Below are positions 245-20,966 of a stretch of DNA of 64,000 nt, one piece after another. The position numbers and the translations under genes are program-made. Under the pieces are notes generated by a model. It made no database searches and was not told where the DNA came from. It saw only the letters and a list, made by a program, of their open reading frames with translations. How positions within the stretch are numbered: position 1 is the stretch's first letter; each line of letters opens with the position of its first letter. The stretch is from Parcubacteria bacterium C7867-008 (lineage in GTDB: Bacteria > Patescibacteriota > Minisyncoccia > Phycocordibacterales > Phycocordibacteraceae): contig LFCR01000002.1 in assembly GCA_001189215.1 (NCBI GenBank), positions 10,677 through 74,676 of the forward strand, written 5' to 3'.

Positions 245-853
245 TTAGCCTTTGAGCTGCTTGAGTGCGGCGATGGTGGCGCGGGCGATGGTGAGCTTGT
301 TCTTAGAACGAGTCTGGATCTTTGCAATCACGTTGGTGACACCAGCGTGCTCAAGTACCACACGCATTGCTGAGCCAGCAACAATACCGCGACCTGGAGA
401 TGGAATCATCTCTACCGTGCTTGATGCATACTTTGCGTGTACCTCATGTGCGATAGAGCGTTCCTTGGTAAGAGGGACTGTGAAGAGTGCCTTCTTTGCA
501 GCACGTACTGCCTTATCGATAGCAAGTGCGGTATCTGCTCCCTTTCCAACACCAACACCAACACGTCCCTTCTTGTCTCCGATAACTACGGTAACGCTGA
601 ATGAGAAACGACGACCTCCTGCCATAACACGAGCAACACGACGTACTTCAAGCGTAGCCTGTTCGAACTCGCTGCGCTCACGGGGAGCACGTTCGCGAGG
701 ACGACCACCAGGACGTCCACCTGGGCGACCACCTGCACCGCGAGCACCGCGCTGCGGACGGGTGTCTGCAGGAGCTGCTTCAACAGGTGCAGCCTCAATA
801 GGTGCTTCGGTTGGAACGATCTCGTTCTCGGTCATAGTAGTAGTGTCAGTCAT
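245..853 (-). CDS. rpsE: 30S ribosomal protein S5 with Pro/Gly/Arg-rich N-terminal extension
   Basis: GGRRFSFSVTVVIGDKKGRVGVGVGKG and C-terminal S5 motifs; position between L18 and L15. Confidence 0.95.
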   Translation of the reverse strand: MTDTTTMTENEIVPTEAPIEAAPVEAAPADTRPQRGARGAGGRPGGRPGGRPRERAPRERSEFEQATLEVRRVARVMAGGRRFSFSVTVVIGDKKGRVGVGVGKGADTALAIDKAVRAAKKALFTVPLTKERSIAHEVHAKYASSTVEMIPSPGRGIVAGSAMRVVLEHAGVTNVIAKIQTRSKNKLTIARATIAALKQLKG

Positions 854-859
854 AAAATA

Positions 860-1204
860 TTAGAAAGCGAGACCTGATTCACGGGCAGCATCCGCAAGCT
901 TCTTAACCTGAGCAGCGTATGCATAGCCACCGCGATCGAATACGACCGTAGTGATGCCTGCTTTTACTGCACGCTCAGCAACCGCCTTCCCTACTGCAGC
1001 AGCCTGAAGGGTCTGTGCACCTGGGAATTCGCGGCCATGTGCAGCAGCAATAGTACGTCCTGCAACATCATCGATAATCTGTGCAGATACGAAACGGTTT
1101 GAGCGATGGATCGCAAGGCGTGGACGAACAGCCGTTCCAGAAACCTGAGAACGAATGCGCTTGTGTCGTCGTGCGCGAAGCACTTGTTTGCTGATAGTAG
1201 TCAT
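860..1204 (-). CDS. rplR: 50S ribosomal protein L18
   Basis: translation [17 protein letters not shown]...[28 protein letters not shown] matches L18; operon position. Confidence 0.95.
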
Positions 1205-1210
1205 AGTGGA

Positions 1211-1744
1211 TTAGACGGCTTTCTTGCCCTGCTTACGGCGGATTACTTCGTCATCATACTTAATACCCTTACCAAGATATGGTTCCGGTGGCTTGATTCC
1301 GCGTATCTCAGCAGCGAACTGGCCAACCTTCTGCTTGTCTGCACCCTCAATAGTCATTGTGGTCTTAACAACACCAACGGTGATACCTTCAGGAATCTTA
1401 ACTACAACTGGGTGTGAGAAACCAACTGCGAATACGAGCTCACTTCCCTTTAGTTCAACCTTGTATCCAACACCGTTAAGGATGAGTACCTTCTTGAACG
1501 GAGTCTCTACGCCCTGCATCATTGCAATAACGTGTGCAGCGAATGTTCCGGTTAGTGCCTTTGCAAGTTTGCTTGAGTTGTTTGGAGTGATGACAACACC
1601 TTCATCTGTAACATTGATAGAAATAGAAGAATGTACAGAACGAGAGAGAGTCTCCTTTGCTCCTTTTACGGAAAGCATGCCATCACCTGCGGTAACGGTT
1701 ACTTTTGAAGGAATCTGGATTGGTTTCTTTGCAAGACGGCTCAT
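1211..1744 (-). CDS. rplF: 50S ribosomal protein L6
   Basis: MSRLAKKPIQIP...two L6 repeats; ORF track extends to 1858 but homology starts at ATG 1744. Confidence 0.9.
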   Translation of the reverse strand: MSRLAKKPIQIPSKVTVTAGDGMLSVKGAKETLSRSVHSSISINVTDEGVVITPNNSSKLAKALTGTFAAHVIAMMQGVETPFKKVLILNGVGYKVELKGSELVFAVGFSHPVVVKIPEGITVGVVKTTMTIEGADKQKVGQFAAEIRGIKPPEPYLGKGIKYDDEVIRRKQGKKAV

Positions 1745-1754
1745 AAATAATGTA

Positions 1755-2147
1755 TTACCAGATCTCGAAGAGATTCTCACCTCCTGCACGTACCTTGCGT
1801 GCTTCCTTGTCTGTAAGGATTCCCTTTGGAGTTGAGATGATGCGAGCACCAAGACCATTCTTTACGGCATGTGCTTCAGTAGAAGAAACATAGAGACGAC
1901 GACCTGGCTTAGAGATACGCTTTACGTCAGTGATCTTGTGATTACCACGCGCATCATAGGCGAGAGTAACTTCGATCTGGAACGGTGCCTTCTTGGTAAC
2001 CTCAACACGCTCTACGAAGCCAAGCTCCTTAAGCTTGTTAGCAATCTCTTCAATATGCTTGGAATGAGGAGCAGACACCATCGTGTTACCGATAGCTCCT
2101 GCATTCTTTAGACGGATTATAAAATCTCCTACGCGGTCAGATACCAT
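1755..2147 (-). CDS. rpsH: 30S ribosomal protein S8
   Basis: MVSDRVGDFIIRLKNA...ISTPKGILTDKEARKVRAGGENLFEIW typical S8. Confidence 0.9.
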   Translation of the reverse strand: MVSDRVGDFIIRLKNAGAIGNTMVSAPHSKHIEEIANKLKELGFVERVEVTKKAPFQIEVTLAYDARGNHKITDVKRISKPGRRLYVSSTEAHAVKNGLGARIISTPKGILTDKEARKVRAGGENLFEIW

Positions 2148-2158
2148 ACAAAAAATAA

Positions 2159-2428
2159 TTACCAAGAAGCTTTCTTAACACCCGGAATCTTACCCTCACG
2201 TGCCATCTCGCGGAACTGGATGCGAGAAAGACCGAATGTACGCATATAGCCACGACCACGACCAGTGATAGCACAACGATTCTTGATACGTACTGGGGAA
2301 GAGTTCTTCGGAAGAGCCTGTAGACCTTCCCAGTCACCCGCAGCCTTAAGAGCCGCCCGCTTTTCAGCGTACTGCGCGACAAGCTTCACCTTCTTGGCGT
2401 TGCGAGCGATTTGGGATGTTTTAGCCAT
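2159..2428 (-). CDS. rpsN: 30S ribosomal protein S14 (long, non-zinc type)
   Basis: [13 protein letters not shown]...[21 protein letters not shown]. Confidence 0.9.
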
Positions 2429-2539
2429 ACGAAAAATAGCTCCGGAGAGCGTGCAAGTAATGTATCAGTTAGTATTTAGCGTGTCAAACAGCGGAGGACC
2501 CAGTCAGAACGAGTGTCTGATTGGGTCCCCTTGTTTGGC

Positions 2540-2890
2540 TTACCAGCTGAGGTGAATAGGTACCAGGAATGGTGCTTCCTGATCGATTTCGGACCGCGCA
2601 ATCGTCCTGAAAGTGGCCCGGACAGTAATCCCGACCTTTTGCACCTCCCGTATCAGCGCGTCGAGGAACTTCCGGAGCTTCCCCTCCACGAAGTGGCCGG
2701 CCTCAGACGTAAGGAACCAAATAACAGTTTCATCCTTTCCTGAGTCTGCTGCGGCCTTCTGATACTGAAGCAGATCGCTCGCGAACCACTCGCGGGCGAC
2801 CTGAACTGGATCCCGATCGTCGAGCTGGATCCCGATGGGATCTCCAGCTATCGCTGCGTCAAATATGTCAGGTGATTTAGTCAAGATCAT
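2540..2890 (-). CDS. hypothetical 116-aa protein inserted between rpsN and rplE
   Basis: uninterrupted ORF, visibly GC-richer than the flanking r-protein genes, no r-protein similarity. Confidence 0.45.
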   Translation of the reverse strand: MILTKSPDIFDAAIAGDPIGIQLDDRDPVQVAREWFASDLLQYQKAAADSGKDETVIWFLTSEAGHFVEGKLRKFLDALIREVQKVGITVRATFRTIARSEIDQEAPFLVPIHLSW

Positions 2891-2982
2891 ATCTCCACCG
2901 CTTATGTTTCAGTCTGTCAGCAGCTAACCATCTAAGTATACCAATGTCAAAAAAGACCCCTTTGCGGGGCCCTTTGTTTTTC

Positions 2983-3522
2983 CTATACACCAACCTTGAG
3001 TGGTATGCCGAGGTGTCGGTAGAAGGCTTCTGCCTCCTCCTTACCTTTTGCGGTGGTTACGAGTGTGATAGCAAGACCAAACACATCCTTGAGATCCTCT
3101 TCGCTTGTTTCAGGGAAGATGCTGTTCTCACGGATACCAATGGTGAGGTTACCCATTGCATCGATAGCACTTGCATTAAGACCACGGAAGTCACGAGTAC
3201 GTGGAAGTGCGATGTTTACGAGCTTGTCGAGGAAGTCGCGCATACGGTCCCCACGAAGGGTTACCTGGTATCCAACTACTTCACCCTCACGAAGCTTGAA
3301 TGATGCAATAGACTGGCGTGCAGCGCGCTCAGATGGCTTCTGGCCGGTGATACGAGCAAGACGATCTGCCACAACCTTGTTGCGGTTCTTGTCACGAGCC
3401 TTTCCAACGCCCGATGATACGACGATCTTAAGAAGGCGTGGTGCTGCCATCGGATTGGTGTATCCGAAGGTACCCTTGAGGGTATCGTATGCGTTCTTCT
3501 GCTTTTCTTTGGTAATAATCAT
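2983..3522 (-). CDS. rplE: 50S ribosomal protein L5
   Basis: MIITKEKQKNAYDTLKGTFGYTNPMAAPRLLKIVVSSGVG... typical L5. Confidence 0.95.
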   Translation of the reverse strand: MIITKEKQKNAYDTLKGTFGYTNPMAAPRLLKIVVSSGVGKARDKNRNKVVADRLARITGQKPSERAARQSIASFKLREGEVVGYQVTLRGDRMRDFLDKLVNIALPRTRDFRGLNASAIDAMGNLTIGIRENSIFPETSEEDLKDVFGLAITLVTTAKGKEEAEAFYRHLGIPLKVGV

Positions 3523-3532
3523 AAAAGTGTAA

Positions 3533-3850
3533 TTACGAGAGTGTCGTGTTGCTCTTCTTTGCTACACGAACCATCTTTCCGTCTTCCTTAGTACGAGCAA
3601 TGCGAGTTCCCTTCTTGCTCTTAGGATCGAGGAACATAACGTTAGATGCATCAATAGCACGTGGACGCTCAACGATAGAGCCAGACTGCTGTCCGCCGCG
3701 ACCACCCTTGAGGTGACGCTTTACGAGTGCAACACCGTCAATAACCACCTGACCAGTTGCAGGAAGTGCACGAGTGATAGTGCCAGTACGGCCCTTATCC
3801 TTTCCTGATACTACGATCACCTGATCTCCTTTTTTGAGTTTCATCTTCAT
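3533..3850 (-). CDS. rplX: 50S ribosomal protein L24
   Basis: KLKKGDQVIVVSGKDKGRTGTI KOW motif. Confidence 0.9.
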   Translation of the reverse strand: MKMKLKKGDQVIVVSGKDKGRTGTITRALPATGQVVIDGVALVKRHLKGGRGGQQSGSIVERPRAIDASNVMFLDPKSKKGTRIARTKEDGKMVRVAKKSNTTLS

Positions 3851-3861
3851 AAATAAATAGG

Positions 3862-4239
3862 TTAGATGACTTCAGGTGCGATAGACGCGATGTTCTGCCA
3901 TCCGCGTTCGATAAGGTCGCGAGGTACTGGACCGAATACACGATTGCCCTTAGGTCCCATCTCCTTACCCTGCTTCTCGATGAGAACAACTGCGTTGTCA
4001 TCAAAGCGGATGTAGGAACCGTTTGCACGGCGATATGCCTTGCGCTGACGTACTACAACAGCCTTGTAGATGTCCTTCTTCTTTACTGCCTTACGAGGCT
4101 CTGCTGTCTGAACAGACACCACAACGACGTCTCCGATTTCTGCATAGCGACGCTTTGAACCACCGAGCACCTTGAAGACGCGCGCTACTTTAGCGCCTGA
4201 GTTGTCTGCGACGGTGACGATGGATTGTGGCTGCAACAT
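3862..4239 (-). CDS. rplN: 50S ribosomal protein L14
   Basis: MLQPQSIVTVADNSGAKVARVFKVLGG... Confidence 0.95.
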   Translation of the reverse strand: MLQPQSIVTVADNSGAKVARVFKVLGGSKRRYAEIGDVVVVSVQTAEPRKAVKKKDIYKAVVVRQRKAYRRANGSYIRFDDNAVVLIEKQGKEMGPKGNRVFGPVPRDLIERGWQNIASIAPEVI

Positions 4240-4256
4240 AGTAAATAAGTTAAATG

Positions 4257-4499
4257 CTATTTCGCGATAGCGAAGTGCTTGTTCTTAGAGATTGGACGGC
4301 ACGCGACGATTGTTACGTCATCTCCTACCTTCACCGTGTTCTCTGGGTCATGCACAAGGTATTTCTTCGTGCGTACCTGGTACTTCTTGTACTTAGGGTG
4401 CTTCACGTAGCGAGATACTGCAACGGTTGCCGTATCCTTCATGGCCGTCTTTACGACAGTTCCGCGGAAGGTCTGGGGGCGAGTAGTGGTTGTTTCCAT
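4257..4499 (-). CDS. rpsQ: 30S ribosomal protein S17
   Basis: RPQTFRGTVVKTAMKDTATVAVSRYVKHPKYKKY... Confidence 0.9.
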   Translation of the reverse strand: METTTTRPQTFRGTVVKTAMKDTATVAVSRYVKHPKYKKYQVRTKKYLVHDPENTVKVGDDVTIVACRPISKNKHFAIAK

Positions 4500-4507
4500 A
4501 GTAAATG

Positions 4508-4720
4508 TTATGCAGCTGCTTCTTCTGATACAGCACCGCGAGTACCGAGCTCGTAGAGTACACGTGCGATCTCCTTACGGATGCGTGAATGTGCATTCGT
4601 ATCTTTCGGACGAGCGCCGACAGATGCGAAACGAGTTGATCGAAGTTCTTCGCGCTTCTCAGCAAGCATCTTCTTGAGCTCTTCGGTCTTCTTCTCGGTG
4701 AGGGTAATTTTCTTTGCCAT
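4508..4720 (-). CDS. rpmC: 50S ribosomal protein L29
   Basis: 70-aa helical protein KKTEELKKMLAEKREELRSTRF, position between L16 and S17. Confidence 0.9.
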   Translation of the reverse strand: MAKKITLTEKKTEELKKMLAEKREELRSTRFASVGARPKDTNAHSRIRKEIARVLYELGTRGAVSEEAAA

Positions 4721-4729
4721 ACGTAAATT

Positions 4730-5152
4730 CTAGCTGCGGGTGATGACACTTGTCTTAAGAGGAAGCTTTGCAGCAGCGCGACGCATTGCGTCACGAGCCA
4801 CACCATCCGCTACACCATCGAGTTCGAAGAGAACACGTCCCGGACGTACTTCGAATACGAAGTGCTTCGGATCACCCTTACCCTTACCCATCTTCAGACC
4901 AGCTGCCTTCTCGGTGATTGGACGATCTGGGAAGATACGGATCCAAAGCTTTCCTCCCTTACCTGTTGCACGAGTGAGCACTTTACGTGCTGCTTCGATC
5001 TGGTTAGAAGTGATGCGGCTTGGGGTGATTGCCTTCATGCCGTATGCACCGAAAGATACCGTGGTACCACGCGTGTCTGGACGTGCGAGCTTTTCAGGGC
5101 TCTTGCGCATGGTCTGCCACTTTCGGTGTTTTACTTTCTTAGGAAACAACAT
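4730..5152 (-). CDS. rplP: 50S ribosomal protein L16
   Basis: MLFPKKVKHRKWQTMR...GKGKGDPKHFVFEVRPGRVLFEL. Confidence 0.95.
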   Translation of the reverse strand: MLFPKKVKHRKWQTMRKSPEKLARPDTRGTTVSFGAYGMKAITPSRITSNQIEAARKVLTRATGKGGKLWIRIFPDRPITEKAAGLKMGKGKGDPKHFVFEVRPGRVLFELDGVADGVARDAMRRAAAKLPLKTSVITRS

Positions 5153-5158
5153 ACGCGT

Positions 5159-5857
5159 TTATTTAGAGCGAGCGTTAGAAGAACCTGCTGGTGCATTATC
5201 TGCAGCGAACTGATCGCCGAGATAGATCCACACCTTGATGCCGATAACACCGTACGGAAGAAGTGCTTCCTGATGAGCGTAATCAATATTTGCACGGAAG
5301 GTCTGAAGTGGAATACGACCACGCTTGATCTGCTCTGTGCGAGACATATCAGCGCCACCAAGACGACCAGACACTACGATGCGAACACCGATAACGTCAC
5401 GGACGGCCATTACCTTCTCTACCGTCTGCTTAAGCACACGACGGAATGGCATACGCTTCTCAAGTCCTTCAACCACCATCATGCCTACTACTGCAGCAGA
5501 AGTTTCTGGCTGTCGGATCTCCATGATGTCTAGCTTGATCGTACGACCATGTTTAGAAGCAACCTTCTGTACTGCCATAGTGAGTTCCTTGCGGAGCTTT
5601 GTGGCATTCTCGCCAGAACGACCAATCACGAGGCCAGGGCGCGCGGTGTGGAGGATCACACGGACTTCAGCTGAAGATCGTTCGATCTCGATCTCTGCAA
5701 TGTGCATGTTACGAAGCTTCTTCTTGAGGAATGCACGGATAGTCTCATCAACGAGAATGTTCTCGCGATACGTCTTCTTGTCTGCAGCAAACCAACGGCT
5801 TCGCCAATCGCGAATGATGCCAAGTCGGTGTGCGTAAGGATGTACGGTGTGAGTCAT
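5159..5857 (-). CDS. rpsC: 30S ribosomal protein S3
   Basis: MTHTVHPYAHRLGIIRDWRSRWFA... KH domain ... Confidence 0.95.
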   Translation of the reverse strand: MTHTVHPYAHRLGIIRDWRSRWFAADKKTYRENILVDETIRAFLKKKLRNMHIAEIEIERSSAEVRVILHTARPGLVIGRSGENATKLRKELTMAVQKVASKHGRTIKLDIMEIRQPETSAAVVGMMVVEGLEKRMPFRRVLKQTVEKVMAVRDVIGVRIVVSGRLGGADMSRTEQIKRGRIPLQTFRANIDYAHQEALLPYGVIGIKVWIYLGDQFAADNAPAGSSNARSK

Positions 5858-6120
5858 GGTATTGAAAAGGGCATGTACTTAACGAGCATACCTGCGCTGT
5901 TAACCGTGATGTTCTGAACACGGAGAGCTGCTTCGTCTTCACCCTGCTGCTTAGCATTAGCTACCGCAGACTGGATGAGCTTAGCGATAGGTAGAGATGC
6001 ACGCTTCGGAAGGAACGCGAGGGCATTAAGCGCATCCTGCACTGACTTACCCTTAACAAGGTCCGTAACGAGACGTACCTTGCGAGGAGACTGGTTGTAG
6101 CTAGTGAGTTCTGCTTTCAT
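5854..6120 (-). CDS. rplV: 50S ribosomal protein L22 (short, 88 aa; C-terminal GRA..KRTSHI segment absent)
   Basis: MKAELTSYNQSPRKVRLVTDLVKGKSVQDALNALAFLPKRA...; stop overlaps rpsC ATG (ATGA); no continuation in other frames. Confidence 0.85.
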   Translation of the reverse strand: MKAELTSYNQSPRKVRLVTDLVKGKSVQDALNALAFLPKRASLPIAKLIQSAVANAKQQGEDEAALRVQNITVNSAGMLVKYMPFSIP

Positions 6121-6123
6121 ACC

Positions 6124-6474
6124 TTATTTCTTCTTTGCGGTTGCAGCAGGTGCTGCCTTAGCAGCCTTTGCAGCTGCGATTTCAGAGTCTTTCTTCTTCT
6201 GCTCGAGTTCCTTCTGCATCTTACCGCCGTGACGGATGAATTTCTTGGTTGGTGAGAACTCGCCAAGGCGGTGCCCCACCATTTCCTCAGAAACAAGCAC
6301 TTCAAGGTGCTTCTGGCCATTATGGACACCAATGGTAAAGCCCACCATTTCTGGAGAGATCATGCTGGCACGTGCCCACGTCTTAATGACGCCTGCAGTT
6401 GATGCCTTAGCGTTGGATACCTTTTTGAGGAGTTTTACGTCCACGTAAGGGCCTTTCTTGAGTGATCGAGACAT
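6124..6474 (-). CDS. rpsS: 30S ribosomal protein S19 with about 28-aa Lys/Ala-rich C-terminal tail
   Basis: [19 protein letters not shown]...[13 protein letters not shown] then ...[17 protein letters not shown]; ORF track start 6495 is upstream of the homologous ATG 6474. Confidence 0.9.
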
Positions 6475-6481
6475 GCGAAGT

Positions 6482-6502
6482 AAAAACCCGCGCAAGCGCG
6501 AG
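6482..6502 (-). promoter_or_regulatory. GC hairpin plus U-tract (minus-strand cucgcg-cuug-cgcggg-uuuuu) about 10 nt upstream of the rpsS ATG; terminator or attenuator-like leader element
   Basis: plus strand AAAAACCCGCGCAAGCGCGAG; near-identical AAAAACCCGCGC element also precedes rpsL (20948-20966). Confidence 0.4.
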
Positions 6503-6593
6503 ATAGGTAAAATCTATATGAAACTAAGTGTCAAATTTAGGGGGTCGTGGTAGGGTCGTAGCAGGAAGCACCATGACATGAGGGGTTTGCGAA

Positions 6594-6971
6594 ATGTCCG
6601 GAGGGCACGGGAATATCATCCAATTTGAGCTGAAACTTGAATTAGAGGGGAAAATATCGCTTGGCACATACCGAGTCTATGACAACCAGGGTAATGCCTT
6701 TACAACCCTTTTCCTGAGCCTGAGAAGGGATGGCTGGGTTCTGTCTACAGAAAGCCTCAGGAAGCTGTTGCTCGTTCTGCTCACGCACACACGAGTCTCG
6801 CTTAATGAAGTGGTGGTTGATGCTTTGTGTTACTACCGCAAGTTGAGCTACGCCGAGAAGGCAGCTCTTGGTGGCGCGATTGATTCAGGCACCGGAATCA
6901 AATTCTATGTGTACGACGGTTGTGATCTATACAGCAACACTCCAGGCGCCTGCATCGCAAGTTTGATGTAA
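6594..6971 (+). CDS. hypothetical 125-aa protein
   Basis: ORF with GAGGGG Shine-Dalgarno 7 nt upstream of the ATG; opposite strand to the ribosomal operon. Confidence 0.4.
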   Translation: MSGGHGNIIQFELKLELEGKISLGTYRVYDNQGNAFTTLFLSLRRDGWVLSTESLRKLLLVLLTHTRVSLNEVVVDALCYYRKLSYAEKAALGGAIDSGTGIKFYVYDGCDLYSNTPGACIASLM

Positions 6972-7049
6972 ATACTAGCCAAGGAGCACGAATGGGGTCT
7001 TGCGGAAACGCAGGACCCTTCCGTTTTTTCTCATGATGCGGAGCTATAC

Positions 7050-7886
7050 TTGGAACATATGGAATATACAGAAATGAATAACAAGCATAAGGCACTGATC
7101 GGTGTAGGAGCCCTTGTACTTATCTTTCTTATCTTTGCTATCTGGTACATGGCTACCCATCAAGCTCCTGCTCCTGTTGGGCCTGTTATAGCAACCTCCA
7201 CTCCAGTGACCACAAGCAGCAGTACACAGACCATTACTGATAACAGCCAATATTACGAGATCAAAGCGACTTATCCTGCTTCTACCCTTCTCAAACAAAC
7301 AACTAGTGAACGAGCCGATACTGAAGCGGTATCCATAATGAAAACATTCGTTGAACAGGAAATCGCTCGATTTAAAGACAATGGAAACTTTGCCAACTTA
7401 ACTCAAGAGGATATCCAGATACAGGGTCTGGGAAATGGCCGCAAATACACTCTCGATGCTGAGTATCAGACATACCAAGGAAAACACACGGTCTCCTACG
7501 TATATACGATAAACCTCGATACCCTTGGAGCACACGGAAACAGCTATTACCGGGTATTCACCTTCGATACTGCAGCAGGCCAGAGTCTTGAGCTGGATGA
7601 CCTCTTTGTCTCAAACAGTGGGTACCTGGAGAAACTCAGTAACATTAGTCGTGTTGATCTACCTGGTGTCATTAGTGCTAAGTTTGGTGAGAGTCCAGAC
7701 ATGGAAGATATTAAGAGTGGTACTACTGCAGACGCTGAAAACTTCCAGAGTTGGTACATAGAAGGTACAAACCTTGTACTTATATTTCCTCCCTATCAGG
7801 TTGGTCCTTACACAATTGGAACCACACTCCTCCCTATTCAACTTTCTCGTCTAGGTGACATGCTTAAAGCAACCTACGTTCCCTAA
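7050..7886 (+). CDS. membrane-anchored DUF4163/DUF3298-like (RsiV/PdaC-type) protein
   Basis: N-terminal TM helix (ALIGVGALVLIFLIFAIWY), Ser/Thr linker, then a two-domain body resembling anti-sigma-V RsiV-like proteins; TTG start with GGAG 6 nt upstream (alternative ATGs at 7059 and 7074). Confidence 0.55.
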   Translation: MEHMEYTEMNNKHKALIGVGALVLIFLIFAIWYMATHQAPAPVGPVIATSTPVTTSSSTQTITDNSQYYEIKATYPASTLLKQTTSERADTEAVSIMKTFVEQEIARFKDNGNFANLTQEDIQIQGLGNGRKYTLDAEYQTYQGKHTVSYVYTINLDTLGAHGNSYYRVFTFDTAAGQSLELDDLFVSNSGYLEKLSNISRVDLPGVISAKFGESPDMEDIKSGTTADAENFQSWYIEGTNLVLIFPPYQVGPYTIGTTLLPIQLSRLGDMLKATYVP

Positions 7887-7969
7887 CTACACCTTCTTCA
7901 ACCGCACCAGTTCTACGAGCGTTGCCTGCACGTTCAGAACGAGGCTCTGTGTGTTGAGAACTATCTTCT

Positions 7970-8215
7970 CTAGAGAGAGAGAAACCTGTCTTCCAGTTTC
8001 TTGAATCTTAGATCAACTTTATCGAACCGTTGATCGATCTGAATGAACCCCTGGTCAATCTTTGAGAATCTTTCATCCACATGCTCGCGAAGAGCATCTA
8101 TACGATCATCAGAGATATCACATCGATCATGTAACGACACAATCTGATCCATTACGTCATAAAGTGTTGGTTCTGTCGTATCAGTCTGAATAACGGATTC
8201 GATTGTGTGTGGCAT
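7970..8215 (-). CDS. hypothetical 81-aa coiled-coil protein with 11-residue RF-x-K-x-D repeats
   Basis: ERFSKIDQGF/IQIDQRFDKVD/LRFKKLEDRFL periodic repeats. Confidence 0.4.
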   Translation of the reverse strand: MPHTIESVIQTDTTEPTLYDVMDQIVSLHDRCDISDDRIDALREHVDERFSKIDQGFIQIDQRFDKVDLRFKKLEDRFLSL

Positions 8216-8276
8216 ACAGATTGCATTAGTGGTGAGTACCTATTAAGGCTAGCAACCTATGCTCATAAACAACGAA

Positions 8277-8301
8277 GAAACCCGTCCACAGGACGGGTTT
8301 C
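8277..8301 (-). terminator. intrinsic terminator after rplB (11-bp stem gaaacccgtcc/ggacgggtttc, loop aca, followed by a modest U-rich run on the minus strand)
   Basis: perfect inverted repeat 27 nt downstream of the rplB stop. Confidence 0.6.
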
Positions 8302-8327
8302 TTCTAAAGGAAAACTTTATATCTTCC

Positions 8328-9173
8328 TTAGCTGCGCTTCTTTCCAACCTTACGGCGAGAAACAATAAATACGTTTGAGTATTTCTTCGGTGTACGAGTC
8401 TTCTGACCCTTACCGGTTGGCTTGCCCCACATGCTCTTAGCACGGCGGAGACCACGACCCTGCTTGCCTTCACCACCTCCGTGTGGGTGATCAACTGGGT
8501 TCATGGCGGTACCACGAACCGTAGGACGAATACCGAGCCAGCGGCTGCGACCTGCCTTACCAATATTTACAAGGCGACTGTTCTCGTTACCAACTGCGCC
8601 AATGGATGCGTAGCAGAGATCAGATACCTTACGAATCTCGCTTGAAGGAAGCTTGACCTGAGCGTATCCAGCATCATGTGCAACGATCTCAGCATAGTTA
8701 CCTGCAGAGCGTACGAGACGTGCTCCTGCACCAACTTTAAGTTCGATGTTGTAGATGAAGGTACCAGATGGGATCTTACCGATCGGCACGCGGTTACCAG
8801 CTTTGATAGGCGCATTCTCTCCAACAATGAATGTATCTCCAACCTTGGTGTCCTTGGGAGCAAGCACATAGCGACGCTCACCATCTGCGTAGAGAGCAAT
8901 AGAGATGAATGCGGTGCGATATGGATCGTACTCAATAGTCTCGATGCGAGCTGGAATATCCTTCTTATTGTATGAGAAATCAATCTCACGGTAGCGACGC
9001 TTGTGTCCACCACCCTGATGACGAGTGGTGATGCGTCCAGCATTGTTGCGACCAGCCTGGCGCTTCTTTGAAGAAAGAAGGCTCTTTGTTGGTTTGTCAC
9101 CAGAAAGAAGCTTCTTGTACGGAAGCGTCGTCATGCTGCGACGGCTTGGGGATGTTGGCTTGTAGGTCTTCAT
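8328..9173 (-). CDS. rplB: 50S ribosomal protein L2
   Basis: ...GRNNAGRITTRHQGGGHKRRYR...NPVDHPHGGGEGK... Confidence 0.95.
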   Translation of the reverse strand: MKTYKPTSPSRRSMTTLPYKKLLSGDKPTKSLLSSKKRQAGRNNAGRITTRHQGGGHKRRYREIDFSYNKKDIPARIETIEYDPYRTAFISIALYADGERRYVLAPKDTKVGDTFIVGENAPIKAGNRVPIGKIPSGTFIYNIELKVGAGARLVRSAGNYAEIVAHDAGYAQVKLPSSEIRKVSDLCYASIGAVGNENSRLVNIGKAGRSRWLGIRPTVRGTAMNPVDHPHGGGEGKQGRGLRRAKSMWGKPTGKGQKTRTPKKYSNVFIVSRRKVGKKRS

Positions 9174-9193
9174 AAATAAGTGCTTACTCGATA

Positions 9194-9556
9194 CTAGAAT
9201 TCAATGGAGTCACCCTTCGCAAGGTACACATACGCCTTGTGACGACGTGCACGGGTACCAGTGCCACGGCGAGTGCGGAGTGAGACAGACTTCGCAGGAA
9301 GATTCGTGACGTTCACCTTACGTGGTGTTACGTTGTAGACCTTCTCAATAGCAGCGGCAACCTCCAGTTTCGATGCATCAGCAGGAATCTGGAATACATA
9401 CACACCGTTGCCAGAAGAAAGAAGCGCCTTCTCTGAGAGCCATGGTGCAACAAGGACGTTCGCAAGACGGCCATCATCGTTCTTCGATACCGGCTGCTTT
9501 GAGCGGACCGATTCCTTCTTAGACTTCTTCTTGGTGTCAGATGAGAAAAGAGGCAT
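9194..9556 (-). CDS. rplW: 50S ribosomal protein L23 with Lys-rich N-terminal extension
   Basis: LLSSGNGVYVFQIPADASKLEVAAAIEKVYNVTPRKVNVTN... L23 core. Confidence 0.85.
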   Translation of the reverse strand: MPLFSSDTKKKSKKESVRSKQPVSKNDDGRLANVLVAPWLSEKALLSSGNGVYVFQIPADASKLEVAAAIEKVYNVTPRKVNVTNLPAKSVSLRTRRGTGTRARRHKAYVYLAKGDSIEF

Positions 9557-9566
9557 ACGAGTAGAG

Positions 9567-10328
9567 TTACTTTGCGAGACGTGTTGCGAGTACCTGAAGT
9601 GATTCTTCAGGACGCTCGATCACGAGGAACTTTTTATTCATGAGGTCGACCGGATTGAGGTTACGCACCTCTTCCGTCATGAGGCTGCCGATGTTGCGGA
9701 ATGAACGAGCAGCCACAGTGTCCTTCGAAGCGAAGGCAACGATTGCTGCATTCTTACGCTTAGTTACGAGTGTTGGCTGTCCTGCACCGTTCGCAATTGC
9801 TACAAGCATTGCCTTTGCATCCTTGGTCTTTGGTGTAGAGAACTCAAGCTTATCAACGAAGATGATTTCACCATCCTTCCACTTGCGTGAGAGTACGGTT
9901 GCGAGTGCTGCCACACGCATCTTCTTGTTGATCTTCACTGAGTAATCTTTCTCAGCACGTGGGCCATGAGTCACACCTCCACCCTTCCAGATTGGAGAAC
10001 GGTTAGATCCGTGACGTGCACGTCCAGTTCCCTTTTGCTTCCATGGCTTCTTACCACCACCAGATACTTCACCGCGGAATTTAGTGTGTGCAACGGTAGG
10101 ACGAGCATTAGCCTGCATACCGATAACAACCTGGTGTACGAGGTCTGCATTCCACTTCTTGCCGAAGAGCTCTTCAGGAAGTGTGATGGTACTTCCCTTT
10201 GCACCTCCTGCAGTCCAGATAGTAGCTTCCATGCTCACGGTCTTCTTAGACGCAGCAGCGACTGGAGCGGTCTTTGCGACTGCCTTCTTTGCTGGTGCTT
10301 TCTTGGTTGTTGCTTTGGTAGTAGCCAT
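9567..10328 (-). CDS. rplD: 50S ribosomal protein L4 with Lys/Ala-rich N-terminal extension
   Basis: ...KPWKQKGTGRARHGSNRSPIWKGGGVTHGP... L4 signature. Confidence 0.9.
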   Translation of the reverse strand: MATTKATTKKAPAKKAVAKTAPVAAASKKTVSMEATIWTAGGAKGSTITLPEELFGKKWNADLVHQVVIGMQANARPTVAHTKFRGEVSGGGKKPWKQKGTGRARHGSNRSPIWKGGGVTHGPRAEKDYSVKINKKMRVAALATVLSRKWKDGEIIFVDKLEFSTPKTKDAKAMLVAIANGAGQPTLVTKRKNAAIVAFASKDTVAARSFRNIGSLMTEEVRNLNPVDLMNKKFLVIERPEESLQVLATRLAK

Positions 10329-10339
10329 ACGTATGAAAA

Positions 10340-10957
10340 TTATGCAGAGATGATCTCTACGAGGGAGCCACGTGCTCCGGGGATAGCGCCAGAGATGATG
10401 ATCTCACCCTTAGCAGCATCCACGTGAAGCACCTTAAGGCTTGGCACCGTGACGCGATCACCACCCATGCGTCCACCCATGCGCATACCCTTAGCTACAC
10501 GACCGCCAGCGCGACCACCGCCACCGATAGAACCTACTTCACGCTCAGAGTGCTTCTGACCGTGTGAACGACGACCTCCCTTGAAGCCGTAGCGCTGCAC
10601 ACCGCCTGCAAATCCCTTACCCTTGCTGGTTCCAGCGATGGTAACTCCATCCCCTACAGCGAATGAATCGAGAGTAATCTCACTACCAACCGTGAAGTCT
10701 GCAGGATTCTCAACACGGAACTCTTTGATAACCTTGAACGCCTTTCCCTTGGTGTGGCCAAGTACTGCTTTAGAAACGCGGCTTTCCTTCTGATCGTCGA
10801 ACGCAACCTGGATGGCATTGTATCCATCAGCACCATCCGCAGTCTTAACCTGCGTAACGGTAAGTGGGGTCGTCTTGAGGACGGTACCAGCCTTAACATC
10901 CCCATTCTCCTGGAAGATTTGGGTCATGCGCTCTTTGCGTGCGAGAAGGAATTTCAT
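10340..10957 (-). CDS. rplC: 50S ribosomal protein L3
   Basis: ...FKGGRRSHGQKHSEREVGSIGGGGRAGGRVAKGMRMGGRMGGDRVTV... Confidence 0.95.
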   Translation of the reverse strand: MKFLLARKERMTQIFQENGDVKAGTVLKTTPLTVTQVKTADGADGYNAIQVAFDDQKESRVSKAVLGHTKGKAFKVIKEFRVENPADFTVGSEITLDSFAVGDGVTIAGTSKGKGFAGGVQRYGFKGGRRSHGQKHSEREVGSIGGGGRAGGRVAKGMRMGGRMGGDRVTVPSLKVLHVDAAKGEIIISGAIPGARGSLVEIISA

Positions 10958-11140
10958 GTAAAAAGTGAAAACGCGCCCTATTGAAAGTGTCTGTGGGAAT
11001 TCGGGGCGATCCGTTCACCTGGATCTTCCCTGTGCCTGACGGGGCCAGCAACGATCCCTTCAATGGCGCCCTGCCAGATGGAGGCGAGATCAAGCCCGTT
11101 CTCTGCTAGACGATGAGTCTGGCACCTGACACGCAAATAC

Positions 11141-11180
11141 GGTCCCGGTAGCGCAAGCTGCCGGGACTTTGCTTTATATA
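11141..11180 (+). terminator. 12-bp hairpin capped by a GCAA (GNRA) tetraloop followed by UUUGCUUUAUAU on the plus strand; terminator-like element in the rpsJ-rplC spacer
   Basis: GGTCCCGGTAGC-GCAA-GCTGCCGGGACT then TTTGCTTTATATAAA; no plus-strand CDS upstream. Confidence 0.4.
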
Positions 11181-11373
11181 AACAGATAGACCACCCCCAA
11201 GGGAGTAGTCCATACGGCAGCTTATTAATTGACTCGAGTCCCCCAAGGAGAACAGGTCAAAATGATGAGATTTAATCTCCGAAGCTACTCCAGCACTATA
11301 CATAGGAGGCACTAAAGAATGCATGAAGAGAGGTCGGTCCCGCAGGTCCGACCTCTTCTCACAGTAAGAAACA

Positions 11374-11751
11374 TCAGCCTCTGGGAATTTCAAGCGCAGC
11401 CGTCTTGATGAACGCGTCGCTGACCGCAAATAGACCACCACCTAGATCATAGATAAAGAATTCCCCTTCTCCTGAGCTGAATCCTTCTCTGAGAAACAGG
11501 AGCCCATCGAACATGGTTTCCGGAACCCAGTCCTGGAACAGGTAATATCCAATGAGCTGATCTTTGGTGAAAGAAACCCAGTAGTTGAGGTACTGGAAGA
11601 ACTTCACCAAACGCCCCGCTGAGAGTCGCGCGGTTTCACTACCCACCTGACCACATAAGGAACCGTCTGGACGTGTCCTGATGACAGCGGGACGGATTGG
11701 GAACGTTGCCTTTGCAGGCTCTTCACATACGATGCATATTGGGCTATTCAT
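11374..11751 (-). CDS. hypothetical 125-aa protein (C-terminal FIYDLGGGLFAVSD motif)
   Basis: ORF in the rpsJ-rplC spacer, same strand as the operon; motif loosely resembles SMI1/KNR4 (SUKH) GGG motif. Confidence 0.3.
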   Translation of the reverse strand: MNSPICIVCEEPAKATFPIRPAVIRTRPDGSLCGQVGSETARLSAGRLVKFFQYLNYWVSFTKDQLIGYYLFQDWVPETMFDGLLFLREGFSSGEGEFFIYDLGGGLFAVSDAFIKTAALEIPRG

Positions 11752-11848
11752 TCAAGTACCTTTCCAAAACAATCTATTTGGAACGTATCACGGGGCGAGA
11801 AAAAGAAAAGTGCGCCCATTGCTGGGTGCACTCATTCATGCGGACACA

Positions 11849-12118
11849 CTACAAGTACCCGCTCGCTTGCTGTGTGCTCATCTTCAGACGTCGTGCTAGC
11901 CCATAGTGCTGCCACTCAAGCCTGCGTAGCCATCCCGTTACTTGATCTTCGCCATTCATGCGGTCTTCGAATCCACCAAGACACGTCGGTCGATAGTCGC
12001 GCACAGCAGCAAGCTGAGCTCTTACTTCTACAATACTGCGATTAACTCTACGAAGGCTTGAGATGAGCTTGCGCCGCTTAAGTGCTCTGCGGAATCGTAA
12101 CCATCGTCTTATAGACAT
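11849..12118 (-). CDS. hypothetical small basic protein (89 aa, MSIRRWLRFRRALKRRK...)
   Basis: AGGAAA Shine-Dalgarno 8 nt before ATG 12118; lies directly after the rpsJ terminator. Confidence 0.4.
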   Translation of the reverse strand: MSIRRWLRFRRALKRRKLISSLRRVNRSIVEVRAQLAAVRDYRPTCLGGFEDRMNGEDQVTGWLRRLEWQHYGLARRLKMSTQQASGYL

Positions 12119-12164
12119 GTTGGGTTTCCTTTCTGGAAGAACCATATCAGGTATGACAAAAAGA

Positions 12165-12193
12165 AAAAGCTCGGCGGTATGCCGAGCTTTTTC
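12165..12193. terminator. bidirectional intrinsic terminator directly after rpsJ (aaaaagctcggc/gccgagcttttt, loop ggtat)
   Basis: perfect 12-bp A/T-flanked palindrome 20 nt past the rpsJ stop. Confidence 0.65.
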
Positions 12194-12211
12194 TTTAGTC
12201 TGTTCTTTCGA

Positions 12212-12565
12212 TTAGACCATCTTCACGTCGATGGTAACACCAGACGGAAGGTTGAGGTTCGTAAGCGCTTCGATGACCTTCGCGTTTGGCGAGAGGATAT
12301 CGATGAGACGCTTATGAATGCGCATCTCGAACTGCTCGCGTGCATCTTTGTGGACGAACGTAGAGCGGTTAACGGTCCAGCGCTTGATCTCAGTTGGAAG
12401 CGGTACCGGGCCCACAATCTTCGCATCGAAGCGATTTGCGGTATCCATGATCTGCTTCACCGAGAGGTCGAGGATCTTATGCTCGTACGCACGCACGCGG
12501 ATGCGAAGCTTTGGCTCAGCACCAGGTGCTGCCTCGGTCTTCTTTGCTTTGGTAGCGGTAGCCAT
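12212..12565 (-). CDS. rpsJ: 30S ribosomal protein S10 with N-terminal Ala/Lys-rich extension
   Basis: ...LRIRVRAYEHKILDLSVKQIMDTA...PNAKVIEALTNLNLPSGVTIDVKMV. Confidence 0.9.
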   Translation of the reverse strand: MATATKAKKTEAAPGAEPKLRIRVRAYEHKILDLSVKQIMDTANRFDAKIVGPVPLPTEIKRWTVNRSTFVHKDAREQFEMRIHKRLIDILSPNAKVIEALTNLNLPSGVTIDVKMV

Positions 12566-12588
12566 ACGAGTAAGGATCTAGAGGGCTA

Positions 12589-13791
<1,203 letters not shown>

Positions 13792-14016
13792 AGAATTTGT
13801 AAGTTACTGGTAGGTAAAAATAATTTGCCGCCGCGCCTGCCTGCGCCTTACAAAAGGCAGACAGGCGACCAAGGCTCCGGCGATACCCGCGCAGCGCCTT
13901 CCAGCCACCCCTGCCCCGTTATGGAGAGGAATATCGAAAAGAGCGCCGATCTCGCGTTATGTATAAAGTACCGGAGGCAGAATTAAAGGTCAAGCAATGA
14001 GCTCCTTGCCCGGTTC

Positions 14017-16326
14017 TTAAGTATGGTTGAATAGGCTCAAAAGCCACGTAAACGGAAAGAGGAGATAGTGAATCAGCTGACTGAAGAATTCTCCCGCGCC
14101 TGAAGCAAATACCGCCGCAAGACGCGTCTCCTTAGGCTGGGGTGCGAATGCTGAAGGTCGCGTTCCGCCACCCACACCTGCACCAGTCCCAGTTAGAACG
14201 GATCCCGACTTGGCTGAGAAATCGTATGAATTGCCGGATGGATCGAAGCTGGCATAGGCCGCAACGTTATCCGGTACCACAATGTCGTTTACTTCCGGGG
14301 TTGAACCTTCATTGATAAATCCTCGTGCGGAATTGTTGGACATCACTACGTTAGAAGGGATTGGGTCAGATGCCGTCCTTCGCTTGACCGCTATCCATGT
14401 CGCTCTTCCATTGTCGGTATAGTTTACCGCCGTATTGTGGTCTATAACGCTATCTTTTACGTTGTACCAAGAGAGACCGTGCCACACCGACGTTATGACC
14501 ACATTATTACTTATCGTAAAGTTTATCAGTGGGCCATCAAATGATGCGATTCCCTGCATGCCACCTATAAGCGGCCGATTTGGATCAGTAGTCTCCTGCA
14601 CCCAGTTGTGGTCGATTACCACGTTACTAAATACGGCTCCATTCGTGAATACTTGGATACCATCGTCATGATTAGGATCACCCTGTGACTGATCCACATA
14701 CTCATCAAGGATGGTGTTATTGGAGACAATCATATCAGAACCATTCGGCACGATTCCATCTGCTGAGAAATTCTGAATGACGTTGTCCTTGATTATTCCT
14801 TTTACACTGTTCGCAGGTGCTGTGCCTCCACTGACGCCCGTATTCATGCCGATGCCGCCACGAACATTCTTTATGTGGTTGCGAAGTATAGATAGACACG
14901 GCCCTCCCTTAAGAGTCACGCCGCTTCTTGTACCATTCATCCATTTGTCTACACTCCAACCGGAACTGTTTTTCGCTGTATAGAAATTACCATCTGCGAT
15001 TATGATGTTTGAAACATTGCCACCATAAACCATCACGCCACTTGGAGTAGCTATTGAAGTCATCTCAGGCTTCGTTACAATCCATTTCTTTGCATCATAA
15101 AACTCTAAGCCATCCATGATCGCACCGCTCTCGAACTCTATCCAGAACCATGCGGTCGGATTGTTATATGGTGCTACATTCGCGCTAATCTTCGCTTTTG
15201 GATGATTGCCTGACATAAGCACAATATGATCTCCGGGTTTAACTACTCGTGCTGCCATCATTGCATTCAGCGTTTTGAAAGGACGCACTCTTGTTCCATC
15301 CCCGGTATCTAGTCCAACCACTGGATCAACATAAAGGGTACGTAGATAATTCCTGTCTGGCGCTTCGCATCCTGAATACACTTGGTATGAACCTGAGAGT
15401 GTGGATGGGGCAGGAGGAGGGGTTGGAGTTGGTACCGGCGTTGGGGTAGGGGTAGGGGTTGGCGTGGGAGTTGGTGTCGGTACAGGTGTAGGAGTGGGTG
15501 TAGGAGTTGGGGTCGGAGTAGGGCTTGGAGCAGGGGTAGGCGCCGGAGTGGGAGTTGATGTAGGAGTGGGAGTACCAACACGGGTAGTAATTTCTACTGT
15601 CTTACTAGTACTCCCTCCTGTGCCCTTACACGTAATACCGTAGACTGTATTTTTGCTTATAGATATATCTGCAGAACCATTTGTTTTGTATCCAGCATCA
15701 AAGCCTGCCCCCACACATGACGTTGCTCTATCAGTCTTCCAAGAAAGAGTTACGGTTGATCCAACCAGCACATTTGTTTGATTTGCAGTAAAGGTAACTG
15801 TGGGTCCAGAAGAAGTGGTGGGTGTTTGAGAAGTAGCTACCGGTGTGACAGTTGGAGTTTCAGTTGGCTTTGTACTTCCAGAACCCTTGGGTGCGCTTGG
15901 AGTTGCTATAGCGACTGGTTCCTCTTTCACTACTGGGCTAATGCCAGATACTGGAATGAGCGAAGGCACATCCCGCAGCAGTTCATATTCTTTTAGCGTA
16001 TCTGTAACAGCTACTGGTTCACCTTTTATTGCTGGTACCGCAATACGCGTTACAAGACCATACGCACCTGGAGCAGATATGAGTAATACGAGTATAAGAA
16101 ATATTTGAAAGAATGATCCCTTCGAATTAGTTTTGCTGGGCACAAAAGATTGATGTATACCCGATGGCACTGCGAATGAAGATTTCTGCAACGCAATAAT
16201 TGCAAGCGCACCATGTATATCTTCCGCGGAATACCCTTTTGCAGTGAAGTCCTTCAGCATCTTCTCTTCACTTTCTCCAAGTTGGTGTCTATTGGATAGA
16301 AGTGCCAGAAGTTCTTTGTCTGCCAT
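14017..16326 (-). CDS. membrane-anchored surface protein: cytoplasmic N-terminus, one TM helix, Pro/Thr-rich linker, right-handed parallel beta-helix (pectate-lyase-like) domain
   Basis: [23 protein letters not shown]; (TP)n linker; repeated beta-helix rungs [61 protein letters not shown]; ORF track start 16344 is GTG, first ATG at 16326. Confidence 0.65.
15400..15560. repeat. tandem low-complexity repeat encoding the (Thr-Pro)n linker of the surface protein
   Basis: repeated GTTGG/GTAGG hexamer-like units; reverse strand gives a spurious [12 protein letters not shown]. Confidence 0.7.
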
Positions 16327-17169: not shown

Positions 17170-17201
17170 ATACGAGAAATTGTACCACTGCGTATAAATC
17201 T

Positions 17202-17248: not shown

Positions 17249-17254
17249 TATCTC

Positions 17255-20947: not shown

Positions 20948-20966
20948 GAAAAACCCGCGCTGCGGG
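20948..20966 (-). terminator. hairpin plus U-tract (gcgcggguuuuuc on the minus strand) between the oxygenase gene and the rpsL ATG
   Basis: plus strand AAAAACCCGCGCTGCGGG; same AAAAACCCGCGC core as the element before rpsS. Confidence 0.45.

Follow-up and report, generated by a model that had tools for sequence, protein, structure and literature searches.

The ribosomal protein genes rplB (L2) and rpsS (S19) are separated by 1853 base pairs (bp; positions 6475-8327) in a 64,000-nucleotide stretch of Parcubacteria bacterium C7867-008 (contig LFCR01000002.1, positions 10,677 to 74,676), referred to here as the window. This genome is one of the Hanford aquifer genomes (Nelson and Stegen 2015, PMC4508563). 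The interval is probably, at a rough probability of 0.8, the local form of an ancient, inherited transcription-unit boundary of the Parcubacteria lineage and not a recent insertion. The ribosomal S10/spc cluster would keep its gene order and be partitioned at three fixed junctions: S10-L3, L2-S19 and L5-S14.

Judging from the sequence motifs, transcription of rplC-rplD-rplW-rplB would stop at a strong intrinsic terminator right after rplB, and the unit from rpsS to rplE would be re-initiated from its own sigma-70-type promoter. A short GC hairpin would lie at the very beginning of the rpsS transcript, within about 0-3 nucleotides (nt), with a U-rich stretch between it and the start codon. The junction may tolerate cargo because its position falls between transcription units; other clades carry other genes there. 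In the family-level clade of the window, an antisense gene for a DUF3298 protein would have been resident since the common ancestor, with its own TATACT promoter and probably a leaderless mRNA. This gene often comes with a second one, on the operon strand, for a small coiled-coil protein.

The adjacency of L2 and S19 belongs to the most conserved gene arrays of prokaryotes and is assumed when blocks of ribosomal protein genes are used to bin, curate and place genomes of the Candidate Phyla Radiation (CPR). Gaps of this kind should not be taken for misassemblies or recent insertions. Three fixed open junctions give a testable picture of where transcription units start and end in uncultivated organisms. 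Literature searches on a break between L2 and S19, a promoter-hairpin leader module, a ribosomal protein leader in CPR bacteria and the loss of Shine-Dalgarno sequences in Parcubacteria found nothing specific.

The gap between rplB and rpsS

The tuf-S10-spc array of the window lies on the minus strand, including both genes that flank the gap. Its universal gene order is intact: tuf, S10, L3, L4, L23, L2, S19, L22, S3, L16, L29, S17, L14, L24, L5, S14, S8, L6, L18, S5. In operon direction, the gap contains a 14-bp hairpin, the coiled-coil gene cc81, the antisense DUF3298 gene, an 11-bp terminator, the open reading frame (ORF) orf125, and a hairpin with a U-tract (Table 1). A first-pass annotation, made from the letters of this DNA, had described a gap of about 1.85 kb with two plus-strand ORFs and one minus-strand ORF; ORF, Pfam and second-assembly evidence bear this out. 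Translation of rpsS truly starts at ATG 6474-6472, which gives a protein beginning with MSRSLKKGP. It ends in an Ala/Lys-rich tail of the Parcubacteria type, a feature of uS19 that is already known (Tsurumaki et al. 2022, PMC9297842).

The S10-L3 gap (1254 bp) and the L2-S19 gap (1853 bp) hold ORFs on both strands, hence the S10 operon is not contiguous in the window. Nor is it, at the sequence level, an operon with a single leader before rpsJ and free of internal terminators and promoters: hairpins follow rpsJ and rplB, and promoter-like sites are present in relatives.

An assembly artefact would have joined two unrelated contigs between rplB and rpsS. The source genome was assembled from a metagenome, two assemblies differ by a 5-nt indel inside the gap, and the neighbouring rplV looks truncated. 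These concerns are answered by an independent metagenome contig of the Joint Genome Institute (JGI), L081 (4503 bp). It spans window positions 10961-6464, from rplC to the start of rpsS, in the same order and with 99.9% identity; the 5-nt indel is the sole difference. L081 reproduces the whole gap, and the arrangement with a DUF3298 gene between L2 and S19 recurs in the other genomes checked. A misassembly is thus ruled out for practical purposes.

Open junctions across Parcubacteria

Relatives were collected by scanning one genome per species. This yielded 80 loci with 61-89% L2 identity, all from Parcubacteria of the Kaiser-, Nomura-, Zambryski-, Taylorbacteria or Paceibacterota type. Nineteen junctions of the array were measured, and a junction was called open at a gap of at least 300 bp. 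L2-S19 was open in 53 of 63 loci (84%), with a median gap of 904 bp and a minimum of 82 bp. L5-S14 was open in 32/51 loci (63%) and S10-L3 in 19/62 (31%). Each of the 16 other junctions was open in 0-1 loci (0-2%), and the classical border between the S10 and spc operons, S17-L14, in none of 57 loci. In six further loci, no rpsS was present up to 6-10 kb from rplB. The window has open gaps at S10-L3 (1254 bp), L2-S19 (1853 bp) and L5-S14 (554 bp), the same three junctions, and at no other.

The cargo of the L2-S19 junction is diverse. Among 121 ORFs in these gaps, Pfam detected DUF3298 nine times, diacylglycerol kinase (DagK) seven times and an IS200-like Y1 transposase five times. DUF5674 and PemK/MazF were present three times each and rplJ-rplL twice, beside MscS and enzymes of nucleotide metabolism. 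The junction is open across the relatives with unrelated cargo in each clade; the split therefore characterises the lineage as a whole, and what fills the gap depends on the clade.

According to the first-pass annotation, L2 and S19 are neighbours in essentially all bacteria; this fails in this lineage, where all 63 relatives have at least 82 bp between the two genes. An insertion peculiar to this organism is contradicted as well: the junction is open in most relatives, and wherever the DUF3298 gene was found, it lies antisense at this very place. The synteny comparison that the annotation had proposed has been carried out, and the relatives share the conserved arrangement, the outcome that it had itself named as speaking against an insertion.

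A recent, organism-specific cassette of three genes, brought in by horizontal transfer or a mobile element and splitting a contiguous rplB-rpsS pair, is very improbable. Such an event would agree with the GC content of the gap (0.41-0.45, slightly below the flanks), with the singleton orf125 and its atypical codon usage, and with the IS200-like transposases and PemK toxins in the L2-S19 junction of other Parcubacteria, where mobile DNA does land. The spacing of at least 82 bp in all 63 relatives argues against it, as do DUF3298 and cc81, which are kept in place; at most orf125, a singleton of patchy presence, could be a recent addition. At the boundaries of the gap, neither bounding repeats nor a target-site duplication were found. 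The repeats present were short and at chance level (a 23-nt pair with 74% identity, and 9-nt seeds as expected by chance). Integrase, transposase and phage genes were not detected in the gap by Pfam, NCBIfam and PHROG.

Terminators

The hairpin 24 nt downstream of the rplB stop codon has a predicted stability of -24.7 kcal/mol and a z-score of -6.2; none of 200 shuffled sequences was as stable. Its 5' arm is rich in A and its 3' arm in U, and it fits the form of an intrinsic (Rho-independent) terminator: a stable stem-loop with a U-rich tail near the stop codon. Among the relatives, a long terminator-like hairpin (A-tract, GC stem, U-tract) was located within 110 nt after rplB in 48/63 loci (76%), after S10 in 45% and after L5 in 57%, compared with 7-13% after internal genes.

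The first-pass annotation had placed an 11-bp-stem terminator behind rplB. A terminator-like hairpin is indeed present, but its stem has 14 bp; the 11-bp stem is that of the plus-strand terminator after orf125. Together with its TTTTTT, this plus-strand terminator has -24 kcal/mol and a z-score of -4.2. Relatives with an upstream ORF have an equivalent terminator ahead of the DUF3298 promoter. The annotation had also proposed an S10 operon transcribed in at least three pieces. Separate pieces are indicated, but the count would rise to at least four units, since terminator hairpins also follow rpsJ and rplE.

Promoter and leader of rpsS

In L081, rpsS is preceded by a promoter-like sequence of the form TTGACA-17-TAGATT. 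The window lacks GACCC between 6524 and 6523; either faulty assembly or genuine sequence variation could account for this. The pattern TTGAC-N16-18-TAnnnT was present within 100 nt upstream of rpsS in 48/63 relatives (76%), compared with 0-8% for internal genes and 3.5% for random segments. The corresponding value for rpsN was 20/26 relatives.

The hairpin with a U-tract before rpsS, which the first-pass annotation had reported, is present at 6502-6482. Its significance derives from its recurrence in relatives: 51 of 63 (81%) have a hairpin with a U-tract within 80 nt upstream of rpsS, compared with 8% of shuffled sequences and 9% of random segments. Promoter and hairpin are combined ahead of rpsS in 44/63 relatives. 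The stem starts at a median of 8 nt after the -10 box, about 0-3 nt from the expected transcription start, and ends at a median of 18 nt before the ATG. The leader hairpins comprise 32 distinct stems with a median of 6 bp and -7.0 kcal/mol. The terminators after rplB have medians of 11 bp and -16.8 kcal/mol (p = 2e-11), and the leader hairpins are a class apart from them. Within the close clade the leader stem is invariant. Support for the hairpin consists of the enrichment over controls and the 32 distinct stems; a hairpin-anchored alignment would make a covariation test circular.

A Shine-Dalgarno sequence was not found before any of about 20 translation genes of the window (starts 245-13791). 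The starts of the ribosomal protein genes lie in an A/U-rich context such as TTTACT (TTTACT-ATG), ACTCGT or TTACGT. Rfam at gathering thresholds recognised only a tRNA in the whole window and no ribosomal protein leader. A permissive scan of 6300-8450 gave only sub-threshold matches at chance level. The list of ribosomal protein leaders by Eckert and Weinberg (2020) contains neither a Parcubacteria leader nor an S19 leader.

A shared module of translation operons

A composite module was defined as a promoter, a hairpin 2-14 nt later, a U-tract and an ORF start. In 1.66 Mb, 87 modules were detected, and 80 of them preceded genes for ribosomal proteins or tuf: rpsS 44, rpsL 14, rpsN 13, tuf 6 and rplC 3, with about 7 before other genes. 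For ORFs of at least 80 amino acids with a promoter-like site, a hairpin followed the site before 74/154 ribosomal protein or tuf genes versus 3/182 other ORFs (Fisher p = 7e-27). In the window, rpsL has a near copy of the rpsS leader. The hairpin of the rpsN leader, GCTC-TCCG-GAGC (2450-2439), is followed by a U-tract and the ATG at 2428. The leaders of rpsL, rpsS, rpsN, tuf and some rplC share a geometry: a hairpin of 5-9 bp about 8 nt past the -10 box, with the ATG about 18 nt later.

The leader hairpin is most likely a 5'-terminal stabilising stem-loop, and the U-rich stretch would be the ribosome-loading region of highly expressed translation operons. The specificity of the module would fit a stabiliser of highly expressed genes or a shared regulatory element alike. 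Alternatively, hairpin and U-tract may form a regulatory terminator: it could attenuate, and so tune, the output of ribosomal protein operons, or it could insulate as a terminator that overlaps the promoter. In both cases the pieces of the cluster would stay transcriptionally coupled. This is a tentative alternative with a real but smaller chance. A GC hairpin followed by a U-tract is the canonical shape of an intrinsic terminator, the module is nearly exclusive to translation operons, and in the minimal junctions of L004, L019, L046 and L062 it is the sole hairpin between rplB and rpsS. The attenuator in the S10 leader of Escherichia coli is a precedent. Terminator-promoter overlaps join S10, spc and alpha in Salmonella (PMC6735719) and would be the analogue of the insulating form. 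Yet the leader hairpins are far weaker than the terminators of the same genomes. They persist beside a divergent upstream neighbour, where nothing co-directional has to be insulated, and a terminator downstream of the promoter would act on the transcripts of its own operon, too. A candidate for a ligand or regulator was not identified.

A wider form of regulation is doubtful: the module on each unit and on rpsL and tuf would be one regulatory switch common to all of them, such as an attenuator sensitive to nucleoside triphosphates or a factor, or a shared binding site. It would replace operon-specific autogenous leaders, and the antisense DUF3298/cc81 pair would belong to the arrangement instead of being a passenger. 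As a stabilising stem-loop or otherwise, the module of promoter, hairpin and U-tract is a candidate for a common control element of ribosome synthesis in organisms without Shine-Dalgarno sequences.

A longer structured leader was observed about 40-90 nt upstream of rplC in many relatives among L001-L020, L045, L063 and L064. Its form is GCTAYG-hairpin-GGACCWATGGC...-GCGCG hairpin-UUUU-ATG, and it may be an undescribed ribosomal protein leader. In the window, the GGACCWATGGC motif is absent, as is the last hairpin's 5' arm.

The antisense DUF3298 gene

The start of the DUF3298 gene is most likely the ATG at 7059, as called in the JGI contig. The encoded protein matches PF11738 with 41 bits (curated cut-off 24.1). 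An AlphaFold2 (AF2) model with a confidence (pLDDT) of 92 predicts that residues 8-33 form a transmembrane (TM) helix, with a Pro/Thr/Ser linker between it and a confidently modelled domain. Foldseek aligned the model with the DUF3298 structures 3cyg (2e-10), 3s5t and 4e72, with the RsiV ectodomain in its complex with lysozyme, 5jen (9e-9), and with MPT64 2hhi (3e-7). The TM-score of the domain to 5jen, normalised to the target, was 0.64-0.70. In the PDB, 3s5t was matched by sequence (6e-5).

The first-pass annotation had called the protein RsiV-like. This holds for the extracytoplasmic fold and the TM anchor according to Pfam and Foldseek, but an anti-sigma domain is absent. Pfam and NCBIfam had no match to such a domain, and the AF2 model has only about 7 residues before the TM helix. 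Neither is a gene for an extracytoplasmic function (ECF) sigma factor (sigV) located next to it: the neighbours are orf125, cc81, rpsS and rplB, and in relatives ribosomal protein genes and assorted cargo. The identification as RsiV was dropped for these two reasons. RsiV, the anti-sigma factor of sigma-V, has an N-terminal membrane anchor with a single TM helix and the same ectodomain fold; the sigma-binding domain and the adjacent ECF sigma gene are what the DUF3298 protein lacks. The protein shares its extracytoplasmic beta-grasp fold with the MPT64 family (2hhi) and with 3s5t and 3cyg. The MPT64-like Rv3036c esterase of NCBIfam was matched only below threshold (32.9 bits, cut-off 200).

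The position of the gene was checked in 20 genomes including the window. It was antisense between rplB and rpsS in eight of the loci from the closest genomes, in 8/8 metagenome contigs with a relative of the protein, and in 4/4 distant orthologues (41-54% identity), one of which overlaps a metagenome contig. More than 120 orthologue clusters exist, all of about 250-300 amino acids. A neighbour-joining tree of eight ribosomal proteins places DUF3298 in the junction of both subclades, with apparent losses in L002, L003, L004, L007 and L010. Because the gene has the same antisense position in all 20 genomes, its residence in the junction is, on this comparative evidence, ancestral to the clade of the window. 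The clade with DUF3298 in the junction provides a phylogenetically informative synteny marker.

The TATACT box upstream of the gene suggests a promoter of its own and a leaderless or near-leaderless mRNA. The arrangement TATACT-N7-9-ATG was found upstream of the orthologues in L005, L012, L014, L082, L084, L085, L087, L089, L090 and L092.

DUF3298 or cc81, or both, might be kept in the junction for a function in ribosome synthesis, either by co-regulation from a divergent promoter region shared with rpsS or by antisense transcription across the junction that modulates read-through. This is improbable. The position of the DUF3298 orthologues is constant over 41-100% identity, and in some relatives the gene diverges from rpsS at a distance of only 120-155 bp. 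The cc81 protein has matches to the ribosome-hibernation families S30AE/HPF; they are weak and insignificant (E 0.04-0.06) and far below the curated cut-offs. A protein that is predicted to be extracytoplasmic, with a TM helix and an MPT64/RsiV-ectodomain fold, is hard to tie to ribosomes. Besides, the close relatives listed above have lost DUF3298 from the junction, and a variable ORF with a terminator often lies between DUF3298 and the rpsS promoter. An inherited unit boundary that tolerates cargo remains the preferred explanation for the position of both genes.

cc81 and orf125

The N-terminus of the cc81 protein (81 amino acids) carries a conserved motif, EPTLYDVMDQIVSLHD, and its C-terminus D-x-RF repeats. 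A word-indexed search had returned only two marginal matches. The resulting view of an orphan was dropped once jackhmmer had compared cc81 with the ORFs of the collected loci: L090, L012, L082 and L083 each have a homologue in the same place and on the same strand. The L090 homologue is 44% identical over the N-terminal 60 residues. Positional homologues in four relatives indicate that cc81 is a real, fast-evolving gene. Its PHROG matches were to families of unknown function only and arose from the coiled coil.

The status of orf125 (AB203_03425) as a gene is doubtful. It had no relative except itself in a word-indexed search of 5.8e9 clustered proteins, in a full phmmer search of 1.84e9 representatives, among the ORFs of all loci (jackhmmer), and by tblastn on the window. 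Pfam, NCBIfam and PHROG had no match. Its codon log-odds of 0.00 are reached by 18% of spurious ORFs, compared with 0.20 for DUF3298 and 0.18-0.40 for the ribosomal protein genes. In relatives, the slot between rpsS and DUF3298 has 0-900 bp and unrelated ORFs; orf125 fills this hypervariable slot in the window. The strong plus-strand terminator downstream of orf125 suggests that something is transcribed from this strand in the slot.

A grouping of the slot ORFs with orf125 into one family was rejected; a family is common only to L082, L085 and L090. This unannotated family of about 170-226 amino acids (NPGWWRNC...AFEYD.RF) is encoded at L082:281-877, L085:132-812 and L090:2915-3427.

Observations against an inherited unit boundary

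Several observations weigh against an inherited transcription-unit boundary. The relatives were sampled only at L2 identities of at least 61% (Paceibacteria-type), and the reach of the partition within the CPR lies beyond that sample. The tail after the rplB hairpin is U-rich but broken (GUUGUUUAUG). A terminator was not found after cc81, so that transcripts of the rplB unit could continue through the gap, antisense to DUF3298, as far as rpsS. In the window itself, the -35 and -10 boxes of rpsS are 12 nt apart, and the canonical 17-nt spacer is present only in L081. A consensus promoter scan of 5800-9300 gave no site (4.4 expected), because the window spacer is 5 nt shorter than in L081. The rpsS leader hairpin of the window is not thermodynamically exceptional (z-score -1.1). 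The neighbour-joining tree is rough and strictly leaves room for several independent gains of DUF3298.

Comparison with known systems

For Gammaproteobacteria and Bacilli it is established that operon borders are the only points at which the ribosomal supercluster takes up foreign genes (Brandis et al. 2019, PMC6735719; Brandis 2021, PMC8046335). The str-S10-spc-alpha supercluster of these bacteria is colinear as well, with non-ribosomal genes only at the borders of units and with terminator and promoter close together. E. coli, Salmonella and Bacillus have one S10 and one spc operon, whereas the borders described here are inside both, and S17-L14 is closed. In contrast to the interoperon overlaps of Salmonella, the hairpin of the window lineage, which is a CPR/Parcubacteria lineage, sits downstream of the promoter and does not overlap it from upstream. 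The arrangement differs from known ones in its borders inside E. coli-type S10/spc operons, fixed across a CPR class, in having the same antisense gene since the ancestor and in one leader design.

The S10 operon leader of E. coli mediates an L4-dependent attenuation that requires NusA. It likewise has a hairpin and a U-tract between the promoter and the first ribosomal protein cistron. The element described here, known from sequence, is a minimal hairpin of 5-9 bp with no further structure; it occurs in several operons, is free in sequence and has no Rfam match.

Stem-loops at the 5' end stabilise mRNAs in the ompA 5' untranslated region of E. coli and in the ermC and aprE leaders of Bacillus subtilis, where they protect against RNase E or J1. 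The leaders of the window lineage resemble them: a highly expressed mRNA has a short, stable hairpin within a few nt of its predicted 5' end, and the ribosome-binding region that comes next is A/U-rich and unstructured. Unlike these stabilisers, the element is lineage-wide, tied to translation operons and has a true terminator-like U-tract; its 5' end is predicted.

Table 1. Features in and around the rplB-rpsS junction. Positions refer to the window.
Feature	Position	Strand	Remarks
rplB (uL2, 281 amino acids), last gene of the predicted rplC-rplD-rplW-rplB unit	8328..9173	-	Pfam L2_N 6e-32, L2_C 8e-50; identical protein on contig L081
Intrinsic-terminator-like hairpin, 24 nt after the rplB stop	8274..8304	-	Perfect 14-bp stem, 3-nt loop
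cc81, gene of a small coiled-coil protein, 81 amino acids	7970..8215	- (operon strand)	jackhmmer homologues; codon log-odds 0.11
Gene of a membrane-anchored DUF3298/MPT64-fold protein, 275 amino acids, antisense to the operon	7059..7886 (ORF 7050-7886)	+	Pfam PF11738 3.7e-10
TATACT -10-like box, 8 nt before the DUF3298 ATG	7045..7050	+	TATACT-N7-9-ATG kept in orthologues
Putative intrinsic terminator between orf125 and the DUF3298 promoter	6994..7029	+	11-bp stem (6994-7019), GAAA loop, TCCGTTTTTT tail
orf125 (AB203_03425), 125 amino acids, slot between rpsS and the DUF3298 gene	6594..6971	+	Coding status doubtful
Predicted rpsS promoter region	6511..6534	-	TTGACA (6534-6529), TATAGA/TAGATT (6518-6511)
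rpsS 5' leader	6482..6502	-	6-bp hairpin CTCGCG-CTTG-CGCGGG (6502-6487) and UUUUU (6486-6482), 7 nt before ATG
rpsS (uS19, 116 amino acids), first gene of the predicted rpsS...rplE unit	6124..6474	-	Pfam S19 4e-33
rpsL leader	20954..20966	-	TATAGTctccctat-CCCGC-AGC-GCGGG-TTTTTCATTCACCAC-ATG; near copy of the rpsS leader
Predicted rpsN promoter and leader	2439..2487	-	TTGACA 2487-2482, 17-nt spacer, TGaTACATT
rpsJ terminator hairpin at the S10-L3 break	12161..12195	-	15-bp hairpin, 17 nt after rpsJ
rplE terminator hairpin at the L5-S14 break	2954..2972	-	11 nt after rplE

Further observations in the array

The rplV gene (5854-6120, minus strand) encodes a uL22 of only 88 amino acids that ends with ...VKYMPFSIP*, and its stop codon overlaps the ATG of rpsC. 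Missing from its C-terminus are 20-40 residues (PRAMGRAxPxRRRKSxV..., with the tunnel-lining beta-hairpin and the last strand), which are kept in 12/12 relatives inspected. Either the L22 loop has truly been deleted, or the assembly is wrong by about 70-80 nt. No identical copy of the truncated L22 is on record elsewhere.

The two other open junctions of the window also contain ORFs. In the S10-L3 gap (10958-12211), orf98 (11849-12145) and orf125b (11374-11751) have no Pfam match; a homologue of orf98 in L012 is 39% identical. About 400 bp upstream of rplC appear to be non-coding and include a 12-bp hairpin at 11141-11168. The L5-S14 gap (2429-2982) contains orf116 (2540-2890), again without a Pfam match.

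The genes fusA (17255-19402) and tuf (12589-13791) are apart, too (13792-17254). Between them are a pilin-like gene of 155 amino acids (16702-17169) and a gene for a protein of 775 amino acids with long Pro/Thr repeats (14017-16344). A bidirectional terminator is located at 17201-17239.

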